Positions 143-29,689 of a stretch of 29,860 nucleotides of DNA are shown one piece after another. Position numbers and translations under genes: made by a program. Source of the stretch: an uncultured archaeon. GTDB taxonomy: Archaea > Iainarchaeota > Iainarchaeia > Iainarchaeales > DATDZZ01. Position 1 is the first letter of the stretch. Every line of letters begins with the position of its first letter. The stretch covers positions 1 to 29,860 of the forward strand of contig CAYJVY010000013.1 in assembly GCA_964373795.1 (NCBI GenBank), read 5' to 3'. The notes below the pieces were generated by a model that saw nothing but the letters and a program-made list of their open reading frames with translations, had not been told where the DNA came from and did not search any database.

Positions 143-430
143 GTGAAGACTGTTAGTATGCGTGTTGAGGAAAGTCAATTAAAGGCAATTCAAGGACTTG
201 GAGAAGAAATGAATTTGGACATGTCTGGTGTGTTTAGAAAAATTGTGGATAAAGGTTTGCAGGAAACTCTTTTGGACCAAGCTGTTGAAAAATACTCTCA
301 AGGCAGTGTTTCGTTATGGAAAGCTGCAGAATTGGCAAAAGTTTCTTTAAGGAAAATGCATGAAGAGCTTTCAAGAAGAGGGATAGATGCACATTTTTCT
401 CAACAAAGTTTTGAAGAAGACACTGCTTGA
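143..430 (+). CDS. UPF0175-family (HTH) antitoxin-like protein
   Basis: 95-aa ORF (GTG at 143; alternative ATG at 158). The C-terminal 'QGSVSLWKAAELAKVSLRKMHEELSRRGI' fits the G-x-[IV]S-L-x-KAAEL...GI pattern I associate with UPF0175 proteins. Its stop lies 15 nt upstream of a PIN-like ORF, which is the usual antitoxin-toxin order. Confidence 0.6.
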   Translation: MKTVSMRVEESQLKAIQGLGEEMNLDMSGVFRKIVDKGLQETLLDQAVEKYSQGSVSLWKAAELAKVSLRKMHEELSRRGIDAHFSQQSFEEDTA

Positions 431-445
431 ATTGGACTTGATTTA

Positions 446-937
446 ATGGTTGTTTCAAACGCTTCTCCATTGATTCTTTTTGCAAAAATCAACAAAGTTG
501 ACCTAATTCTGGAAACATTTGGAAAACCAATAATAATTGAAGAAGAAGTAAGAAAAGAATTAATTGATTCAGGATTGAAGGAAGGATATGCTGATGCACT
601 TTATCTTCAGGAATTGGTTAACAAAAAATCAATAATTGTCAAAAAAGCAAAAGAATCCAAAGAAATAACAGGCATACATTTAGGCGAAACAAAAACAATT
701 TACTTGGCGCTTGAATTAAAGGAAAAAACAGTGCTAATGGACGAAGAAGACGATAGAGCAGCAGCAAAAGCATTTGGATTAGAACCAAAAGGCACTCTTT
801 ATGTCTTATACGAACTATACAAAAAGAAAAAACTGCCAAAACAAGAAGCTATCAAAATCCTTAACCAACTAATTCAGCAAGGATACAGATTATCAACAAA
901 ATACTATGCCCAGTTTCTGGAAAAACTGGGAAACTAA
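446..937 (+). CDS. PIN-like (COG2405/DUF3368-type) putative toxin
   Basis: 163-aa ORF. The N-terminus 'VVSNASPLILFAKINKVDLILETFGKPIIIEEEVRKEL' resembles the PIN-like nucleic-acid-binding proteins that normally pair with UPF0175 antitoxins. It is tightly spaced after 143..430. Confidence 0.6.
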   Translation: MVVSNASPLILFAKINKVDLILETFGKPIIIEEEVRKELIDSGLKEGYADALYLQELVNKKSIIVKKAKESKEITGIHLGETKTIYLALELKEKTVLMDEEDDRAAAKAFGLEPKGTLYVLYELYKKKKLPKQEAIKILNQLIQQGYRLSTKYYAQFLEKLGN

Positions 938-2944: not shown

Positions 2945-3172
2945 ATGACTAATATTACTTTGTCAATTGAGGATTCTGTATATAAAAAAATGCATGAGCA
3001 TTCAGAAATAAAGTGGAGTGAATTTGTTCGTAAAGCTATAAAAAAGAGATTAGGTGAATTGGATTCTCTGAAAAAAGGTAATGTTGAAAGCATATTCACA
3101 ATGCTCGCTTCTGAAGAAGTTCTTAAAAAAGAGTGGGATAATGAAGCTGATGAAAGGTGGAATAATGTATAA
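2945..3172 (+). CDS. Ribbon-helix-helix (CopG-like) antitoxin
   Basis: I prefer the ATG at 2945 over the track start at 2849. 'MTNITLSIEDSVYKKMHEHSEIKWSEFVRKAIKKRL' has the beta-strand/helix/helix pattern of RHH antitoxins. An acidic C-terminal 'SEEVLKKEWDNEADERW' follows. It overlaps the toxin start by 8 nt (ATGTATAA). Confidence 0.65.
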   Translation: MTNITLSIEDSVYKKMHEHSEIKWSEFVRKAIKKRLGELDSLKKGNVESIFTMLASEEVLKKEWDNEADERWNNV

Positions 3173-3485
3173 TCAAAGAGACATTGTAATTATACCTTTT
3201 CCTTATTCTGACCTAACTGATGCAAAGCAGAGGCCTGCGTTAATTATTTCAAATGATTTAATAAACAAAACAGATGACAGAATATGTTGTCTTATCACAA
3301 GCAATGAACCCTTGAATGGAATTGTTATAGATTCACTTGAGGAAGGAAAACTACCATTCAAAAGTTGGGTTAAACCATATAGAGTGTTTACAGTTCATGA
3401 AAAAATAATTAAAAAAAAGCTCTGCGCAATAACTAAAAATTTTCATAACAAAATAATAGAAAACATAAACCAATATATAAAGTAA
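3165..3485 (+). CDS. MazF/PemK-family toxin (endoribonuclease-like)
   Basis: I prefer the ATG at 3165 (track start 3081). 'MYNQRDIVIIPFPYSDLTDAKQRPALIISND' matches the conserved GDIV-x-V-x-FPF-x-D...K-x-RPALVLS N-terminus of PemK/MazF proteins. Confidence 0.8.
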   Translation: MYNQRDIVIIPFPYSDLTDAKQRPALIISNDLINKTDDRICCLITSNEPLNGIVIDSLEEGKLPFKSWVKPYRVFTVHEKIIKKKLCAITKNFHNKIIENINQYIK

Positions 3486-13938: not shown

Positions 13939-14475
13939 ATGTTATCGGAAGGAGATCTTGCCCCGAATTTTTCTTTGAAAAATCAGAAAGGAGAAACAGT
14001 AACGCTTTCAGATTTTAAAGGAAAAAAAGTTGTATTATATTTTTATCCAAAAGATGACACTCCTGGATGTACTATTGAAGCCTGTCAGTTTAGAGATGCA
14101 AAATCTGATTTAAGTAAAAACGGAATAATTGTTTTAGGAGTGTCAAAGGATTCAATTGAATCGCATGAAAAATTTGTAAACAAATTTTCTTTGAATTTTT
14201 CCTTGCTTTCAGATCCAGATGGAAAGGTTTGCACTGCATACGATTCTTATGGAGAGAAAACAATTTTTGGAAGACTTGGACTAGGAATTTTGCGTAACAC
14301 TTTTTTAATTAACGAGAAAGGAAAACTTGTTAAAATTTTTAAAAGTGTTTCTCCGCAAGGACATGAAAAAGAGGTTTTACAAGCATTCGCCGAGCACGCG
14401 GTTGGCGTGAACAGTCAGCCGACGAGGCTGAGGCGAGCGGCGAGCGTGAAGCCGGCAGGGCTGAGAAAAAAATGA
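13939..14475 (+). CDS. bcp: Peroxiredoxin, Bcp type, with a 24-aa GC-element-encoded tail
   Basis: 'VVLYFYPKDDTPGCTIEACQFRD' contains the peroxidatic Cys motif. The homologous end of the family ('...LQAFAEHA') is followed by 'VGVNSQPTRLRRAASVKPAGLRKK'. Confidence 0.85.
   Translation: MLSEGDLAPNFSLKNQKGETVTLSDFKGKKVVLYFYPKDDTPGCTIEACQFRDAKSDLSKNGIIVLGVSKDSIESHEKFVNKFSLNFSLLSDPDGKVCTAYDSYGEKTIFGRLGLGILRNTFLINEKGKLVKIFKSVSPQGHEKEVLQAFAEHAVGVNSQPTRLRRAASVKPAGLRKK
14386..14465 (+). repeat. GC-rich junction element (copy A), about 70% G+C
   Basis: I count 56 G/C in 80 nt against an AT-rich background. Hairpins: CACGC-GGTTG-GCGTG (14395..14409) and TCAGCC-GACGA-GGCTGA (14415..14431). It shares the words GCGGCGAGCG, CGGCGA..GCGTGA and TCAGCCGRCGARGCTGA with copies B and C. 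Confidence 0.7.
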
Positions 14476-15490: not shown

Positions 15491-15796
15491 ATGGATGGAT
15501 TTTCGGTTAAAAAAGTTCCAGGCGGAAAACTAATTAAAATTCGCTTAAATTTTTCGGAAAAAATTGATTCAATTAAATTAATGGGGGACTTTTTTTTGCA
15601 TCCAGAAGATACTGTGCTTGAATTGGAAAAAACTTTAATTGGTTTGAATGCAAATGAATCACTTGAATTTTATTCAAGCAAGCTGGAAAATGTTTTACAT
15701 TTAAATAATGCTGAATTGTTTGGAATTTCTTCAAATGATTTAGCTGAAACTTTAATGGAGGCCATTAAAAATGGATTGGCGAGTAATAAAACTTGA
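15491..15796 (+). CDS. lplB: Lipoate-protein ligase accessory subunit (LplA C-terminal-domain homolog)
   Basis: 101 aa. 'KKVPGGKLIKIRLNFSEKIDSIKLMGDFFLHPED' resembles the stand-alone C-terminal domain of bipartite archaeal lipoate ligases. It lies directly upstream of, and overlaps, the catalytic subunit gene. Confidence 0.65.
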   Translation: MDGFSVKKVPGGKLIKIRLNFSEKIDSIKLMGDFFLHPEDTVLELEKTLIGLNANESLEFYSSKLENVLHLNNAELFGISSNDLAETLMEAIKNGLASNKT

Positions 15797-23738: not shown

Positions 23739-25181
23739 TTAGTTTTTCTTTTTTGGCGCGAGGTGAATTGCTTTTCCTAGAGCTGCTTCTGCGGCTTCCA
23801 TTATTGCTTCACTCATTGTTGGATGAGGATGAATAGTTATTGCAATGTCTTCCAAAGAATTATAGGATTCCATTGCTAAAGCGCATTCTGAAATTAAATC
23901 TGAAGCATTTGGGCCAACAATCCATACTCCAATTATTTCATTTGAATCAGTGTTTACAATGAACTTTACAAATCCATCAATGCGATGCATTGTAAGCGCA
24001 CGCCCTAAAGCAGCAAAAGGAAATTTTCCTATTCTGTAATTAATTCCTTTTTCTTTTGCTTCTCTTTCACTTAAGCCAACTGAAGCAATTTCTGGATCAG
24101 AGTAAACCACTGCAGGAATAACGCGATTTTCAAAAGCACTTTTTTGTCCTGCAATTACTTCTGCTGCAATTTTTCCTTGAGCACTTGCACGGTGTGCAAG
24201 CATTGGCTCGCCTGTTACGTCTCCAATTGCATAAATATTTGAATCACTTGTTTGGCATTGAGAATTAATTATTATTTCTTTTTTATCGTTTAATTTTACT
24301 TTAGTGTTTTCTAGTCCAAGATTTTCAGTGAATGCTTCTCTTCCTAATGCAACTAAAACCTTTTCAACTTCTAATTCATTTTTTTTTCCATCCTTTGATT
24401 CAATTAATAGTTTTACTGAATCTCCTTTTTTTTCACTGCTTTTTACAATTGAATTTAAGTGAATTTTTACTCCAATTTTTTGCAGTTTTTCTTGAACAGT
24501 GTTTACTACATCTTCATCGTATTTAGTCATTAAATGTTCTGATCTATGGATAATATGTGTTTCACTTCCGGCTTTTCCGAAAACAGTTGCTAGTTCTACT
24601 GCAATATATCCTCCTCCAATTACTGCAACTTTTTTTGGAATAAAATCTAAATCTAATGCTTTTTCAGAGTCAATTATTTGTTTTTCATCAAATTTTGCTT
24701 CAAGTAATTCTTTTGATTTAGATCCAGTTGCAATTATTGCTTTCTTGAATTCAATTGCTTGAGCTTCAAGTCTTTCTCCTTCTGCCGGAATTATTCTAAC
24801 TCTGTCTGAGTTTTCAAATCTTGCAAAGGCTTTAATTACTTCAATCCCGTTTGCTTTGCATAAAAATTTTATTCCATTAGTTAGCTTGTCTATTATTCCT
24901 TTCTTCCATTCCTGTGTTTTCTTCATATCCAATGATTTTTTTTCAACGTTTACTCCGAAATCTTTTGCAGAACTTATTTCGTGAAAAAAATCCATTGCAT
25001 GAATTAATGCCTTGGATGGAATGCATCCATGATGCAAGCAAATTCCGCCCCATTCAGCTTTTGCATCAACTAAAATAACTTTTTTTCCTAATTGAGCTGC
25101 GCGAATTGCTGCAACATATCCTCCTGGACCGCCACCTATTACTAGTATTTCTGTTGAAAGACTTAATTCTCCCATTACCAT
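23739..25181 (-). CDS. lpdA: Dihydrolipoyl dehydrogenase (E3)
   Basis: 'VIGGGPGGYVAAIRAAQLG', the redox-active 'GGICLHHGCIPSKAL', a second dinucleotide fold 'VAVIGGGYIAVELA', and C-terminal 'HPHPTMSE'. Confidence 0.9.
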   Translation of the reverse strand: MVMGELSLSTEILVIGGGPGGYVAAIRAAQLGKKVILVDAKAEWGGICLHHGCIPSKALIHAMDFFHEISSAKDFGVNVEKKSLDMKKTQEWKKGIIDKLTNGIKFLCKANGIEVIKAFARFENSDRVRIIPAEGERLEAQAIEFKKAIIATGSKSKELLEAKFDEKQIIDSEKALDLDFIPKKVAVIGGGYIAVELATVFGKAGSETHIIHRSEHLMTKYDEDVVNTVQEKLQKIGVKIHLNSIVKSSEKKGDSVKLLIESKDGKKNELEVEKVLVALGREAFTENLGLENTKVKLNDKKEIIINSQCQTSDSNIYAIGDVTGEPMLAHRASAQGKIAAEVIAGQKSAFENRVIPAVVYSDPEIASVGLSEREAKEKGINYRIGKFPFAALGRALTMHRIDGFVKFIVNTDSNEIIGVWIVGPNASDLISECALAMESYNSLEDIAITIHPHPTMSEAIMEAAEAALGKAIHLAPKKKN

Positions 25182-25202
25182 TTTTTATTCAACTCTTTTT
25201 TT

Positions 25203-25310
25203 CTTTTCAGCTTCGCCTATTGCGATGTCTCGTGCGTCGAGCACGAGGGCCAACGTCGGCCTTCAGCTTCGCCGGCTGATCGCTTCAGCTTCGCCGGCTG
25301 AACGGCGTCA
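25203..25310 (-). repeat. GC-rich junction element (copy B) with a 22-nt tandem repeat
   Basis: About 64% G+C (66/103 by my count for 25208..25310). CTTCAGCTTCGCCGGCTGA occurs at 25261..25279 and 25283..25301 (period 22). A partial third copy, TTCAGCTTCGCC, is at 25206..25217. Hairpin CTCGTGC-GTCGA-GCACGAG is at 25229..25247. Confidence 0.75.
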
Positions 25311-26636
25311 TAAACCTAACAGAAGTAAATCAGGGTTTTCTAAAAACTTAATGATTTCTGTTACAAATCTAGCTGCTTCTGCTCCGTCCACTATTCTGTG
25401 ATCGAATGGCAGGCTTAAAACTGTAATAGTGCGAGTAGCAATTGAATTATCAGGCATTACTTTTACTACTTTTTTGAATGTTCCAATTCCTAGAATTGCT
25501 GCATCTGGTTTGTTAATGATTGGAATGGAAATTGTTCCTCCAAGGCTTCCAACATTTGTTATTGTAAATGTTTGTCCATGTAATTCTTGTAAAGAAATTT
25601 TTCTAGTACGAGCTTTTTCAGTTAATTCTTGTAATTCTTTTGCTAATTCTAAAATGCTTTTTTTATCTGCATTTTTTATTACTGTAACCATTAATCCTTC
25701 AACTGTATCTGTTGCAATTCCTAAATGATAAAATCCTTTTAACACGATTTCTTGTTTTTCTTCATCCAAGGATGAATTAAATTTTGGATATTTTTTTAAT
25801 GCTTGAATTACAGCTTTTATTATGAATGGCAAAAAAGTTAAATGAATTCCTTTTTTTGCAGCTTCTTCTTTTTCTCTAGTCCTTAATTCAACTAATCTTG
25901 TTACATCTGCTTCATCTATTTGCACTGCTTCAGGAATAGTGAACTTGCTTTTAATCATGTTTTCTGCAATTACTTTTCTAATTCCTTTAAATGGAATTCT
26001 TTGTTCTTGTCCTTCAGGAACACTGGATTGAATTGGTTGAAATGCTGGCATGCTTGGAGACTGTGAAAAAGTTTTTGATGAGCGATTAACTGCTTGGCGA
26101 ACGTCTTCATCAGTTATTCTTTCGTTTGGCCCTGTTCCTTGAATTAATTCTATTTGCACTCCTAACTCGCGAGCAAGTTTTCTTGTTGCAGGAGTTGCTT
26201 TCACTTCTTTTGCAGGCGCTCCCACAGTTGCTGGCATTGGTTGTGGAATTGGTTTTGAAATTGTTTCAACTTGTTTTGCTTCAAATGCTTTTTCAATTTT
26301 TTCAGTAATTTTTGGAGTTGGCTCTAAATCATGTTTTTTTGGACGCAGAATTTCAGTGTCTAAATCTTTTCCTGCAACAGTTTTTGGAAGGCTTTCTCCT
26401 TCTTCTCCAAAGGATACAATTACTTGTCCTAAATGAAGAGTGTCTTTTTCTTTTGCATGAAGTTTTAAAATAGTTCCTGCTTTTGGAGCAGGTAATTCTA
26501 CTACTGCTTTATCTGTTTCCACTTCAGCTAATGGTTGATCTTCTTTTACTTTATCTCCTTCTTTCACTAACCATTTAATTAGAATTCCTTCATGAATTCC
26601 TTCTCCTACATCCGGGAATTTGAATTCAAAAACCAT
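25308..26636 (-). CDS. pdhC: Dihydrolipoamide acyltransferase (E2) of a 2-oxoacid dehydrogenase complex
   Basis: Lipoyl domain 'LAEVETDKAVVELPAP', a subunit-binding domain 'ATPATRKLARELGV', and catalytic 'LPFDHRIVDGAEAARF'. Substrate (pyruvate versus branched-chain) cannot be decided from sequence by eye. Confidence 0.9.
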   Translation of the reverse strand: MVFEFKFPDVGEGIHEGILIKWLVKEGDKVKEDQPLAEVETDKAVVELPAPKAGTILKLHAKEKDTLHLGQVIVSFGEEGESLPKTVAGKDLDTEILRPKKHDLEPTPKITEKIEKAFEAKQVETISKPIPQPMPATVGAPAKEVKATPATRKLARELGVQIELIQGTGPNERITDEDVRQAVNRSSKTFSQSPSMPAFQPIQSSVPEGQEQRIPFKGIRKVIAENMIKSKFTIPEAVQIDEADVTRLVELRTREKEEAAKKGIHLTFLPFIIKAVIQALKKYPKFNSSLDEEKQEIVLKGFYHLGIATDTVEGLMVTVIKNADKKSILELAKELQELTEKARTRKISLQELHGQTFTITNVGSLGGTISIPIINKPDAAILGIGTFKKVVKVMPDNSIATRTITVLSLPFDHRIVDGAEAARFVTEIIKFLENPDLLLLGL

Positions 26637-26979
26637 TTTCTGCCTCTATTAGTTTTACAATTGTTTTTACAATTTTTTTATAAAAATCTTTTTTTACCTT
26701 TCCAATTTTTTTAATTGCAAATGATTTTTTAAGCAGATTAATTTTGTCGTATCTTATATATGTTTGAAATTTTAAAGAGCCCTTTTCCATATAGTTGGTT
26801 AATACTCTTAACTCATTAATTTTTTGTGATTTAGTTGTAAGAGCAACAAATAAGGCGTCTTGTGATTTTTGATTGTAATTGTTATTTGATAGTATTATTG
26901 TAGGACGTACTTTGTTTTTTATAAAATTTGTAAAAGGGTAATTTACTAAAACTATGTCTCTTTGATTTAAATCAATCAT
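26626..26979 (-). CDS. MazF/PemK-family toxin
   Basis: 'MIDLNQRDIVLVNYPFTNFIKNKVRPTIILSNN' is a PemK N-terminal signature. It starts 1 nt after the antitoxin stop, and its stop overlaps the first 11 nt of E2. Confidence 0.75.
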   Translation of the reverse strand: MIDLNQRDIVLVNYPFTNFIKNKVRPTIILSNNNYNQKSQDALFVALTTKSQKINELRVLTNYMEKGSLKFQTYIRYDKINLLKKSFAIKKIGKVKKDFYKKIVKTIVKLIEAENGF

Positions 26980-26980
26980 T

Positions 26981-27259
26981 TTATTCCTCTTCTAAATAAG
27001 AACTCCATACATTATCTTCTTCATTATCCCAAACATCTTTAAGCGACTCTTCTGCTAGTTTCAGCCAAAAAAAATCTTCATCGTCTTCTTCACTTAATTT
27101 TCTTAATACTGCTTCTTGTTTTTTTATTATTAGTTCTCCATTTTTTTCAATCAATACCAATGTTTCATTTTTCTTCAATTTTAAGTCTATTCTAAACTCT
27201 TCTGGAATAACTACTTGTCCTCGTTCACCAAGGGTAACAGTTTTAATCTTTGCAATCAT
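26981..27259 (-). CDS. AbrB/SpoVT-fold (MazE-like) antitoxin
   Basis: 'KTVTLGERGQVVIPEEFRIDLKLKKNETLVLIEKNGELIIKK' has the swapped-hairpin barrel pattern (G-x-x-GQV-x-IP). The acidic C-terminal tail is 'AEESLKDVWDNEEDNVWSSYLEEE'. Confidence 0.7.
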   Translation of the reverse strand: MIAKIKTVTLGERGQVVIPEEFRIDLKLKKNETLVLIEKNGELIIKKQEAVLRKLSEEDDEDFFWLKLAEESLKDVWDNEEDNVWSSYLEEE

Positions 27260-27448: not shown

Positions 27449-28426
27449 TTATTGTTTTAATGTATCTTTTACTTCTTTTAAAATTCTTTTTTCGTCTGGC
27501 AAGTAATAATGCTCTAATTGCGCTAAAGGAATTATTGTATTGTATCCTGCAATTCTTTTCACTGGAGCTTTTAATTCGTATAATGCTTTTTCATTTATTT
27601 GTGCAGTGATTTCTGCTCCTATTCCTAGAAATTTTACTGCTTCATGAATTATTGCACATCTTCCTGTTTTTTTAACTGATTCAATTATTGTGTTTGAATC
27701 CATTGGAAAAACTGTTCTTAAATCAATTACTTCGCATGAAACTCCTTCTTCTTTTAATGAATCTGCTGCTGCAAGAGTTGGCCGCATAATTGCCCCTAAT
27801 GAAACTAAAGTAATATCTGTTCCTTCTCTTACAATGTTTGATTTTTCTAATGGAATAAAATATTCTTCTTCTGGAACTTCTTCTTTGAATGCTCTATACA
27901 TTTTAAGTGATTCAAAAAATATTACTGGATCTGGATCGTGAATTGCTGATGCAAGTAATCCTTTTGCTTCAATTGGGCTTGAAGGAATTACTACTTTTAA
28001 TCCTGGAACATGGGCAAAAAATGTTTCAGTTGATTCTTGGTGATGTTCTAATGCTCTAATTCCTCCTCCATAAGGAGTTCTTACAACTAAAGGGCAATGA
28101 AATCTTCCTCTAGATCTGTTCCTAATTCTTGCTGCATGGGATACTAGTTCTTCAAATCCTGAATAAACAAATCCACTGAATTGAATTTCTAGAACTGGTT
28201 TTAATCCGTGTACAGCCATTCCAATTCCTGTGCCAATTATTCCTTCCTCTGATAAAGGAGAATCAATTACTCTTTGTTTTCCGTATTTTGCTTGCAAGCC
28301 ATCTGTTACTCTGAATACTCCTCCATCTACTCCAATGTCTTCTCCCATTAAAATAATTGAATCATCTTTACTCATTTGTTGATCTAGACAATTATTTATT
28401 GCATTAACCATATGCATCTGCGGCAT
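27449..28426 (-). CDS. pdhB: 2-Oxoacid dehydrogenase E1 beta subunit
   Basis: 'MPQMHMVNAINNCLDQQM' parallels the 'MAQMTMVQAI' start of Gram-positive PdhB. The ORF shows full-length transketolase-like pyrimidine-binding and C-terminal domains (325 aa). Confidence 0.9.
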   Translation of the reverse strand: MPQMHMVNAINNCLDQQMSKDDSIILMGEDIGVDGGVFRVTDGLQAKYGKQRVIDSPLSEEGIIGTGIGMAVHGLKPVLEIQFSGFVYSGFEELVSHAARIRNRSRGRFHCPLVVRTPYGGGIRALEHHQESTETFFAHVPGLKVVIPSSPIEAKGLLASAIHDPDPVIFFESLKMYRAFKEEVPEEEYFIPLEKSNIVREGTDITLVSLGAIMRPTLAAADSLKEEGVSCEVIDLRTVFPMDSNTIIESVKKTGRCAIIHEAVKFLGIGAEITAQINEKALYELKAPVKRIAGYNTIIPLAQLEHYYLPDEKRILKEVKDTLKQ

Positions 28427-28430
28427 TAAA

Positions 28431-28477
28431 GGTCACGCTCCTTCGCCGTCACGTGCGGCGAGCGCGAAAAGTGCGAC
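28431..28477. repeat. GC-rich junction element (copy C)
   Basis: About 68% G+C (32/47). Palindrome TCGCCG-TCACGTG-CGGCGA is at 28443..28461. GCGGCGAGCG (28455..28464) is identical to 14437..14446. On the mRNA strand, the 3' arm of the hairpin is followed directly by the GGAG upstream of the E1beta ATG. Confidence 0.7.
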
Positions 28478-28478
28478 A

Positions 28479-29561
28479 TTACATTTCCCCTCTTTCTTGC
28501 ATTAATTTTTCAAAATATTCTTTGTCTTCTTTCAAGTGTTTAGGCATTTTTTCATAAATGAAGTCAAACATTTCACTTGGCTTTGGTTTTGGAACTGCCT
28601 CAAATTTTTTTACTGCTTCTTCTACTTTTGCAATGCATTCTTCAGCTATTTTTTCTGATTCTTGAGTTGACTGCATTCCAGTTTGATGCATGAATTTTTT
28701 TAATCTATCAATCGGGTCTTTTGCAATCCATGAATCTACTTCTTCTTTTGACCTGTATTTTTTCCAGTCATCAGCTGTTGTATGATCGCTTATTCTATAA
28801 GTTAAGCATTCAATTAAGCTTGGGCCTTTTCCTTGTCTTGCTCTATCCACTGCTTCTTTTGTTGCAGCATATACTGCAAATAAATCGTTTCCGTCTACTT
28901 GAATTCCTGGAAAACCATATGCAATTGCTTTTTGAGCAATTGTTTGAGCATGTGTTTGAATGCTTCTAGGAGTTGAAATAGCGTATTGATTGTTTTGACA
29001 AATATATACTATTGGAGCCTGCCATACTCCTCCAAAATTCATTGCAATTTGAGTTGCACCAGTTGAACTAGTTCCATCTCCAAAATAAGTCATTGCAACC
29101 CTGTTTTCCTTTCTATACTTTATTGCATAAGCATATCCTGTTGCATGTAAAGCCTGTGTTCCTAAAGGCACTGCTACAGTGAAATTATTCACTCCTTCTG
29201 CTGCTTGAGCTCTTTCATCTCCACTCCAAGCTTGAAAAATTCCGTCTAAAGGAGTTCCCCTCATAATCCAAACAGAATGCTCTCTGTAAGTTGGAAAAAT
29301 AAAATCATTTGCTTCTAATGCTCCACAAGTTCCAACAATTGAAGCCTCTTGTCCTCTTGGACTTCCATAAGTTCCTAGACGCCCAGTTCTTTGCAATTTT
29401 AAAGCCTTTTCATCAAATGCGCGAGTTAAAACCATCCAATAATAGAATTCTTTTACTTGCTTGCTTGAAAGCTTTGGCATTAATGTGTCTTCAACTTTTC
29501 CATTTTCATCCATTACTTGCAAGTATTCTACTTTGAATTCTGCAACAGTTTTTCTAACCAT
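28479..29561 (-). CDS. pdhA: 2-Oxoacid dehydrogenase E1 alpha subunit (TPP-binding)
   Basis: 'YFGDGTSSTGATQIAMNFGGVWQAPIVYICQNNQYAIS' is the GDG-x(24-27)-NN thiamine-diphosphate motif. The 360-aa size and position upstream of E1beta fit. Confidence 0.9.
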   Translation of the reverse strand: MVRKTVAEFKVEYLQVMDENGKVEDTLMPKLSSKQVKEFYYWMVLTRAFDEKALKLQRTGRLGTYGSPRGQEASIVGTCGALEANDFIFPTYREHSVWIMRGTPLDGIFQAWSGDERAQAAEGVNNFTVAVPLGTQALHATGYAYAIKYRKENRVAMTYFGDGTSSTGATQIAMNFGGVWQAPIVYICQNNQYAISTPRSIQTHAQTIAQKAIAYGFPGIQVDGNDLFAVYAATKEAVDRARQGKGPSLIECLTYRISDHTTADDWKKYRSKEEVDSWIAKDPIDRLKKFMHQTGMQSTQESEKIAEECIAKVEEAVKKFEAVPKPKPSEMFDFIYEKMPKHLKEDKEYFEKLMQERGEM

Positions 29562-29605
29562 TTAAAACCACTCCAGCGGTTTTAAAGTTTTAAAAAATTT
29601 AAATG

Positions 29606-29689
29606 TGAAATTCATTTAAAATTTCTCCAGGAATTTTAAAATTTGCAAATTTTTAGATTTGAAATTCATTTAAGTTTCCTCCGGAATTT
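29606..29689. repeat. Two ~31-nt direct repeats in the promoter region of the dehydrogenase operon
   Basis: TGAAATTCATTTAAAATTTCTCCAGGAATTT (29606..29636) and TGAAATTCATTTAAGTTTCCTCCGGAATTT (29660..29689), period 54 nt. The second overlaps the palindrome CCGGA-ATT-TCCGG (29681..29693). Confidence 0.6.

Follow-up and report, generated by a model that had tools for sequence, protein, structure and literature searches.

GC-rich islands at gene junctions of an AT-rich DPANN archaeal contig: a candidate family of hairpin-forming mini-insertions

Described palindromic repeats and the islands of this contig

Rickettsia palindromic elements (RPEs), which reside in an AT-rich reduced genome, are inserts of about 100 nt that form hairpins and can be translated in frame as an extra peptide. 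Mitochondria of yeast and other organisms, with their very AT-rich genomes, harbour GC clusters, i.e. short (30-100 nt) GC-rich palindromes (PMC4478555, PMC2800124), which proliferate and undergo 'merger and shuffling' (PMC4478555). Both bacteria and archaea are reported to contain palindromic repeats of REP type (PMC12306157). According to PMC3733652, REPs have a GTAG or CGTC head, a conserved tetranucleotide that flanks the palindrome on one side.

Here, we analysed an archaeal contig of 29,860 nt with 30.9% G+C; this whole stretch of DNA is called the window in the following. Three islands of 60-63% G+C, designated A, B and C, stand out in this 31% G+C contig, with B occupying the spacer between the E2 and E3 genes of a 2-oxoacid dehydrogenase operon. 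The reading that we put first, with about even confidence, is that the islands belong to a lineage-specific family of small GC-rich hairpin-forming mini-insertions, selfish or neutral, of which one copy resides in the E2-E3 spacer. A literature search on GC-rich intergenic repeats in DPANN archaea yielded no prior description.

RPEs are comparable to island A, which lies in bcp, in their in-frame read-through as an extra peptide, but they are bacterial, do not form GC-rich islands and have genes themselves, not stop/start junctions, as insertion sites; a sequence relationship is not expected. Miniature inverted-repeat elements (MITEs) are likewise small, non-coding, structured insertions with a patchy distribution, whereas the islands have no clear terminal inverted repeats, no unambiguous target-site duplication and no known parent IS. 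With the mitochondrial GC clusters, the islands have in common the short palindromic format in a very AT-rich genome, presence or absence between close relatives, mosaic copies (module 1 in A and B, module 2 in B and C) and a location in spacers, at times in frame inside genes. However, the clusters are organelle-resident, while the islands are located on an archaeal chromosome, were seen in three copies with a mobility and spread that can be called putative, and have no sequence similarity to any described mitochondrial cluster class. REP and BIME elements resemble the islands as imperfect GC-rich palindromes that occur several per spacer, between co-transcribed genes or at gene 3' ends. Palindromes of this imperfect GC-rich kind are found at 25229-25247 and 25248-25261 in B and at 14386-14437 in A; B and C are found outside ORFs and A inside the extended bcp ORF. 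REP/BIME elements are present in tens to hundreds of dispersed copies per genome; of the islands, three loci were found in the 35.5 kb read. REPs are arranged in alternating inverted orientation, whereas B is dominated by direct tandem 22-nt units. A gene for RAYT, the cognate Y1 transposase of REPs, was not seen among the window ORFs compared to Pfam. Measured against the head motif given in PMC3733652, the islands have no GTAG, and CGTC occurs just in loops (GCGTCGA, AACGTCGG on the plus strand). On these comparisons, the likeness to GC clusters and REP/BIME elements is a resemblance in kind and not membership, given the missing GTAG/CGTC head, the non-organelle host and the lack of clear inverted termini or target duplications.

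Three islands in an AT-rich contig

The gene content of the contig is archaeal, including a geranylgeranyl reductase, a UPP synthase, AsnC-type regulators and several toxin-antitoxin pairs. The best named matches of E3 (lipoamide dehydrogenase) come from Woesearchaeota, Nanoarchaeota and Micrarchaeia at about 50-54% identity, and the top E3 match among GTDB representative genomes is merely 46% identical. Judging by sequence, the host of the islands is a DPANN-type archaeon with an AT-rich genome. The operon around island B comprises the following genes, all on the minus strand.

28479-29561, minus strand: E1alpha, 2-oxoacid dehydrogenase (pyruvate-dehydrogenase-type, PDH) operon
27449-28426, minus strand: E1beta, same operon
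26626-27259, minus strand: mazE/mazF pair, inserted in the operon between E1beta and E2
25308-26636, minus strand: E2, same operon
23739-25181, minus strand: E3, same operon

The stop codon of mazF overlaps the start of E2 by 11 nt; the gap between E1beta and E2 measures 4-21 nt in relatives. Including mazE/mazF, three loci of toxin-antitoxin type are found within 30 kb, and the window carries a UPF0175/DUF3368 (PIN-like) pair at 143-937 (plus strand) and a second MazF-like ORF at 3081-3485 (plus strand). The stretch 29559-29689, which directly adjoins the E1alpha start codon on its upstream side, is an AT-rich tandem repeat with units of 54 nt (2.4 copies, 78% matches).

The island scan, performed in 30-nt windows with a threshold of at least 60% G+C, detected three long GC islands of about 65, 94 and 108 nt in the window, each of them at a junction of same-strand genes. 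With the third island at E1alpha/E1beta, which the first-pass annotation had not connected with the element in the E2-E3 spacer, all three long GC islands are thus located at cistron junctions. The same scan revealed no long GC island in an additional 5.6 kb from the Logan contig L089, which brings the total to 35.5 kb. In L174, an AT-leaning locus of Woesearchaeota (37% G+C, 21 kb), no comparable non-coding islands were found. Island B and its surroundings are composed as follows.

25308-25310, minus strand: E2 stop codon TGA
25285-25311, minus strand: mini-ORF MTPFSRRS* of 8 codons, its ATG overlapping the E2 stop (ATGA)
25203-25307, minus strand: island B, GC-rich composite of 105 nt, 62-64% G+C versus 31% in the contig
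25283-25304, minus strand: tandem unit 1, 22 nt, core TCAGCCGGCGAAGCTGAAG, possible 6-bp TTCAGC/GCTGAA stem
25261-25282, minus strand: tandem unit 2, 22 nt, 21/22 identical to unit 1
25248-25261, minus strand: GC hairpin GGCC-GACGTT-GGCC, -7.3 kcal/mol, z -2.5
25227-25247, minus strand: module 2 segment, containing a perfect 7-bp hairpin (CTCGTGC-TCGAC-GCACGAG) at 25229-25247
25203-25217, minus strand: third, partial unit GGCGAAGCTGAAAAG, continuing into the A-rich leader
25182-25202, minus strand: native A-rich E3 leader AAAAAAAGAGTTGAATAAAAA, predicted to be unpaired
25179-25181, minus strand: E3 start codon ATG

A first-pass annotation of the window had described a GC-rich gap of 126 nt between E2 and E3, built around a tandem repeat with a period of 22 nt. 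The gap indeed covers 126 nt (25182-25307), 66 of the 103 nucleotides at 25208-25310 are G or C, and TCAGCCGGCGAAGCTGAAG is found at both 25261-25279 and 25283-25301. The partial third copy is also present, as the 12-mer GGCGAAGCTGAA recurs at 25206-25217 within the partial unit. On the mRNA strand, island B reaches from directly after the E2 stop to the A-rich leader of E3 in the order: two 22-nt units, the GGCC..GGCC hairpin, the 7-bp hairpin and the third partial unit, followed by the leader; the E3 ATG is situated about 19 nt downstream of the terminal A-run. The 8-codon mini-ORF is probably incidental. An ending of the form GCTGA-R-AAAAAA, supposed to be common to the elements in the bcp tail and the E2-E3 spacer, holds for A, which ends in GCTGAGAAAAAAATG, but is fitted only loosely by B (GCTGAAAAGAAAAAAA), the A-run of which is interrupted by a G. 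The corresponding features of the other two islands are listed below.

14383-14470, plus strand: island A, bcp tail adjoining thiI; last ~29 codons of the bcp ORF, ATGA overlap with thiI
14386-14437, plus strand: 52-nt hairpin in A
14415-14436, plus strand: module 1 in A, TCAGCCGRCGARGCTGARGCGA
14437-14454 and 14454-14475, plus strand: degenerate further units in A, the last passing the island end into the ATGA overlap
28427-28478, minus strand: island C, 52-nt GC-rich insert from the E1alpha stop to the E1beta start
28432-28477, minus strand: imperfect hairpin in C
28448-28467, minus strand: module 2 in C

Island C constitutes a bridging ORF of 17 codons (MSHFSRSPHVTAKERDL, 28426-28479, minus strand) that is tied to either neighbour by a TAATG stop/start overlap, of the E1alpha stop with the ATG of the ORF on one side and of the stop of the ORF with the E1beta ATG on the other.

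Exact matches of Logan assemblies over A, C and the first 42 nt of B bear out that the element is present in the underlying data. Island A is identical in three Logan runs (L002-L004) and island C in L089, which originates from the differently numbered run ERR3478686. Contig L001 enters B from the E2 side for 42 nt with zero mismatches and ends at 25266, inside tandem unit 2, and no Logan assembly spans B completely. In run ERR3478686, L089 extends to 25329 and L005 begins at 25195, so that exactly 25196-25328 are missing between two 10-kb contigs, a gap that could reflect population heterogeneity or a drop in coverage. The islands hence disrupt short-read assembly, with Logan contigs ending at B. 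These breaks are what one would expect if B were an assembly artefact, namely a chimeric join through GC-rich reads. We regard such an origin as extremely improbable, as it is opposed by the faultless 42 nt of L001, by the fully spanned islands A and C in independent runs and by the modules that B has in common with both of them.

Between the window and L005, we counted ten mismatches, eight of them within 33 nt at about 15607-15639 (L005 9557-9589). This cluster falls inside a 101-aa ORF (15491-15796) upstream of lplA and marks a local hypervariable patch in populations that are otherwise identical.

Similarity and folding of the islands

Matches between islands were judged against dinucleotide-preserving, composition-matched shuffles of the islands themselves (500 for A/B). 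The similarity of the tandem unit to the bcp tail, which had been noticed in the first-pass annotation, was recovered with 15/18 identical positions over the core and 19/22 in the extended match (14415-14436), in the same orientation relative to transcription. Under this null, it exceeds the composition-matched shuffles: 19/22 was reached by 0 of 500 dinucleotide shuffles of A (p < 0.002). The B segment TCGTGCTCGACGCACGAGAC (25227-25246) is 17/20 identical to C in the same orientation (p = 0.002), and 15/17 positions of A agree with C in reverse complement (p = 0.016). MAFFT places the three islands collinearly, and in a gapped alignment the A-run of A is preceded by a second, degenerate unit and then by a partial one at the terminus, in the same order as in B. 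With nhmmer, which corrects for composition in another way, similarity between the islands is weak (E 0.11 to 3 in 71 kb), and each match falls in another island. We conclude from these matches, which are short and come from three copies, that islands A, B and C appear to be related mosaics.

Random drift in G+C content had been doubted from the beginning, and rightly so, as island B is discrete and internally repeated. Of the directional, junction-specific element proposed for B and the bcp tail, the related and non-random element at junctions was found, while its directionality rests on two comparisons: identical orientation in A/B and B/C amounts to a 1-in-4 coincidence, and the A/C match runs in the opposite direction.

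A composition so far from that of the genome, with a GC3 in the open frames of 0.85 (A) and 0.81 (C) compared to 0.18 genome-wide, would also be expected of unconnected pieces of foreign GC-rich DNA that came, for example, from a host or neighbour, were captured at sites of break repair and form no repeat family. The bcp tail contributes to this idea, as homology of Bcp to a Xanthomonas protein reaches 5-6 codons into the GC-rich stretch of island A. Long basic Ala/Lys/Pro tails of Bcp occur in some GC-rich organisms. Despite these points, we consider captured scraps improbable. The islands share modules beyond the composition-matched null, the flanking coding sequence is normally AT-rich, and the coding-like three-base periodicity of the A and C frames was dismissed as not significant at 16-26 codons (chi-square by hand, p about 0.1-0.2). 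Moreover, no donor emerged: plasmid BLAST of A and B gave noise (E of at least 5e-3, unrelated genes), and searches with the module 1 pattern gave 43 matches in viral contigs (37-75% G+C) and 41 in JGI metagenomes (contigs of 55-75% G+C), all of them of seed length and none with a GC island in an AT-rich background.

The homology to solved Bcp structures (..VLAALKAHA) extends through AFAEHA, encoded by the GC-rich codons 149-154 (14383-14400). With AFAEHA both aligned and GC-rich, the boundary of island A falls inside sequence that matches the native Bcp C-terminus.

Stability of hairpins was scored as z against shuffled sequence. The 7-bp hairpin CTCGTGC/GCACGAG at 25229-25247, predicted beforehand, proved to be stable (-11.8 kcal/mol, z -4.0), and the hairpin at 25248-25261 appears in both the minimum free energy and the centroid fold. 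For the TTCAGC/GCTGAA hairpins claimed for the repeat units, a 6-bp stem is possible, but its stability is no better than that of shuffles (z -0.5 for unit 1, -1.15 for unit 2). Taken as a whole, island B folds modestly better than chance (z -2.5), A reaches z -3.0 against shuffles with its 52-nt hairpin at 14386-14437 scoring -27.9 kcal/mol (z -3.6), and C folds no better than chance (z -0.7). The predicted fold of B leaves the E3 leader and AUG unpaired. The module 2 helix of B is not kept in C, where both substitutions break pairs, which favours common descent and disfavours a conserved structure.

Structured RNAs are conspicuous as GC-rich islands in AT-rich archaeal genomes. Small stable RNA genes between protein genes, for example archaeal C/D-box guide RNAs, would therefore account for such islands on general grounds, and the units do contain recurrent CUGA motifs, with degenerate half-motifs in A and B that consist of a C-like box followed after 10-16 nt by CUGA. 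This explanation is very unlikely in our view. A pattern search allowing one mismatch per box found no canonical C, D', C', D arrangement in the window, and Rfam returned no family around any of the islands, neither at gathering scores nor at permissive thresholds, with nothing near threshold. In addition, an ORF encloses A, and C forms a mini-ORF with perfect coupling. A tRNA/tmRNA scan of the window detected none.

Gene junctions in relatives and in the present operon

Orthologous operons offered a comparison for the idea of a conserved junction signal. In the nearest relative, L086, the E3 of which is 72% identical, the E2-E3 spacer comprises 109 nt with 12-15% G+C and holds no GC-rich element like B. 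The spacers of L086 and the window have in common just the last ~20 nt, GAGTTGAAT..ATG, which read GAAGAGTTGAATTATATG in L086. In two more distant DPANN operons, all PDH genes overlap or are separated by 4-23 nt (gaps of 0-23 nt over all junctions), and E1alpha and E1beta in relatives overlap or are 4 nt apart. The absence of B from the L086 junction contradicts a conserved junction signal and indicates a recent lineage-specific gain instead. The bcp tail fits in with this. Bcp proteins, both those with solved structures and the best 150 from 1.8 billion representatives, have their C-terminus mostly at query residues 148-154, so that the last ~24 residues of the window's Bcp represent an add-on encoded by island A. 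As far as can be told from these sequences, the junctions were tight in the ancestor, and the islands were gained there recently and within this lineage.

In the malE-malF spacer of E. coli, REP stem-loops act as cis RNA elements and mRNA stabilisers. By analogy, B might be a selected cis-acting RNA, the stem-loops of which set the E2:E3 ratio by blocking a 3' exonuclease, by providing a processing site or by uncoupling translation. Its transcript must be polycistronic, since B replaces the AT-rich, promoter-like spacer of L086. Further support comes from the strong hairpins directly after the E2 stop, from the unpaired E3 leader and AUG, from the orientation relative to transcription kept by module 1 (A, B) and module 2 (B, C), and from the presence of two of the three islands in the same operon. 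We nonetheless judge a selected RNA to be unlikely, albeit worth weighing. B is absent not only from the nearest relative but from all other PDH operons examined, the sole comparable helix (module 2) is the one broken in C, the unit hairpins do not rise above chance, and neither an Rfam match nor a U-tract or terminator was found. Scans for intrinsic terminators and sigma-70 promoters were negative, the hairpins on the mRNA strand preceding an A-run with no U-tract.

We come back to the family of mini-insertions, which we favour. It best fits the discrete GC-rich islands in an AT-rich genome, their hairpins, the tandem and shuffled modules, the absence from relatives and the toleration of copies in a spacer, as a bridging mini-ORF and as an in-frame tail. 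Module 1 of this family is TCAGCCGRCGARGCTGARG, which B carries in tandem duplicate and A has as well, and module 2 is TCGYGCTCGMCGCACGWGAC, shared by B and C. The copies may have arisen by insertion, after which slippage duplicated sequence locally and modules were shuffled, as is the case for yeast mitochondrial GC clusters and bacterial REP/BIME clusters. But why should such copies be seen just at junctions of co-oriented genes? At these sites, 50-105 extra bases destroy no gene, and the restriction is most simply explained by survivorship, insertions elsewhere in a gene-dense genome being lethal. Each copy accommodates its junction in its own way: C preserves stop/start coupling by means of the bridging mini-ORF, A prolongs bcp in frame by a tail that ends in ATGA, and B is positioned past the E2 stop such that the native A-rich E3 leader stays free. 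In the polycistronic transcript, B places stable stem-loops directly 3' of the E2 stop. Translation of E3 can be expected to become uncoupled from that of E2 in this way, and degradation of the upstream RNA in 3'-to-5' direction may be slowed. Such effects on the RNA would be a by-product and not the reason for the existence of the element. The islands probably uncouple translation in an operon in which subunit ratios matter.

Against a repeat family, it counts that the three copies come from 35.5 kb of one species, that the similarity between them is short and rated weak by nhmmer, that neither terminal inverted repeats nor target-site duplications could be made out with certainty, that the window ORFs include no transposase, RAYT, integrase or reverse transcriptase, that the viral and metagenome matches were chance hits of seed length in mostly GC-rich contigs, that C as a whole folds no better than chance, and that two of the three reside in one operon, which might also speak for a function specific to that operon. 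Should the family hold genome-wide, streamlined AT-rich DPANN genomes can host GC-rich selfish hairpin repeats of the type found in yeast mitochondria and among bacterial REPs, and tight operon junctions are the survival sites of such repeats.

The boundaries of the islands prompt a more far-reaching thought: C is bounded by TAATG on both sides, A ends in ATGA and B begins with ATGA. There is a slim chance that we are dealing with an undescribed class of archaeal mini-elements homing specifically to places where the stop and start codons of translationally coupled genes overlap (ATGA, TAATG). Insertion of such an element would regenerate both signals, and the element would be carried along as a bridging mini-ORF or an in-frame tail; if true, such a parasite would have adapted to the tight operon structure of reduced DPANN genomes.

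With regard to target-site duplications, C shows TAATGYCGCA on both sides, in part required as stop/start and in part paired within the hairpin, and the flanks of A and B show just AT-rich matches of 6 nt. With regard to terminal inverted repeats, the ends of B offer just a TTCAGC/GCTGAA pairing of 6-7 nt, and none is evident for A or C.

The ORFs of the window, compared to Pfam, included no transposase (Y1/RAYT among them), integrase, tyrosine recombinase or reverse transcriptase. Inspection for attC core sites by reading gave the wrong order: GTTAGGT before the E2 stop and GTTGAAT before the E3 ATG are both of R' type, with no complementary R''. A template/variable repeat pair of a diversity-generating retroelement was rejected, as the differences between A and B are A<->G in both directions and a reverse transcriptase is absent from the window.

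Past the end of the window and upstream of the operon, L089 (1-5630) encodes a lipoyl synthase, a Fic protein, a serine hydrolase and three consecutive Phage_T4_gp19 (tail-tube-like) genes, a neighbourhood that suggests a contractile-injection or prophage-like cluster. The gp19 protein is identical to one encoded on a 102-kb NCBI contig.

For gene annotation, the islands have the consequence that they add a spurious tail of ~24 residues to Bcp and blur the start call of E1beta. Start calls for E1beta differ by five codons (28424-28426 versus 28409-28411, minus strand), the Logan form having 325 aa (MPQMHMVNAIN...) and the NCBI form 320 aa (MVNAIN...). Comparison with L088 (MTKLHMVAALN) favours the longer form, whose initial codons (CCG CAG) resemble the neighbouring island C in being GC-rich.
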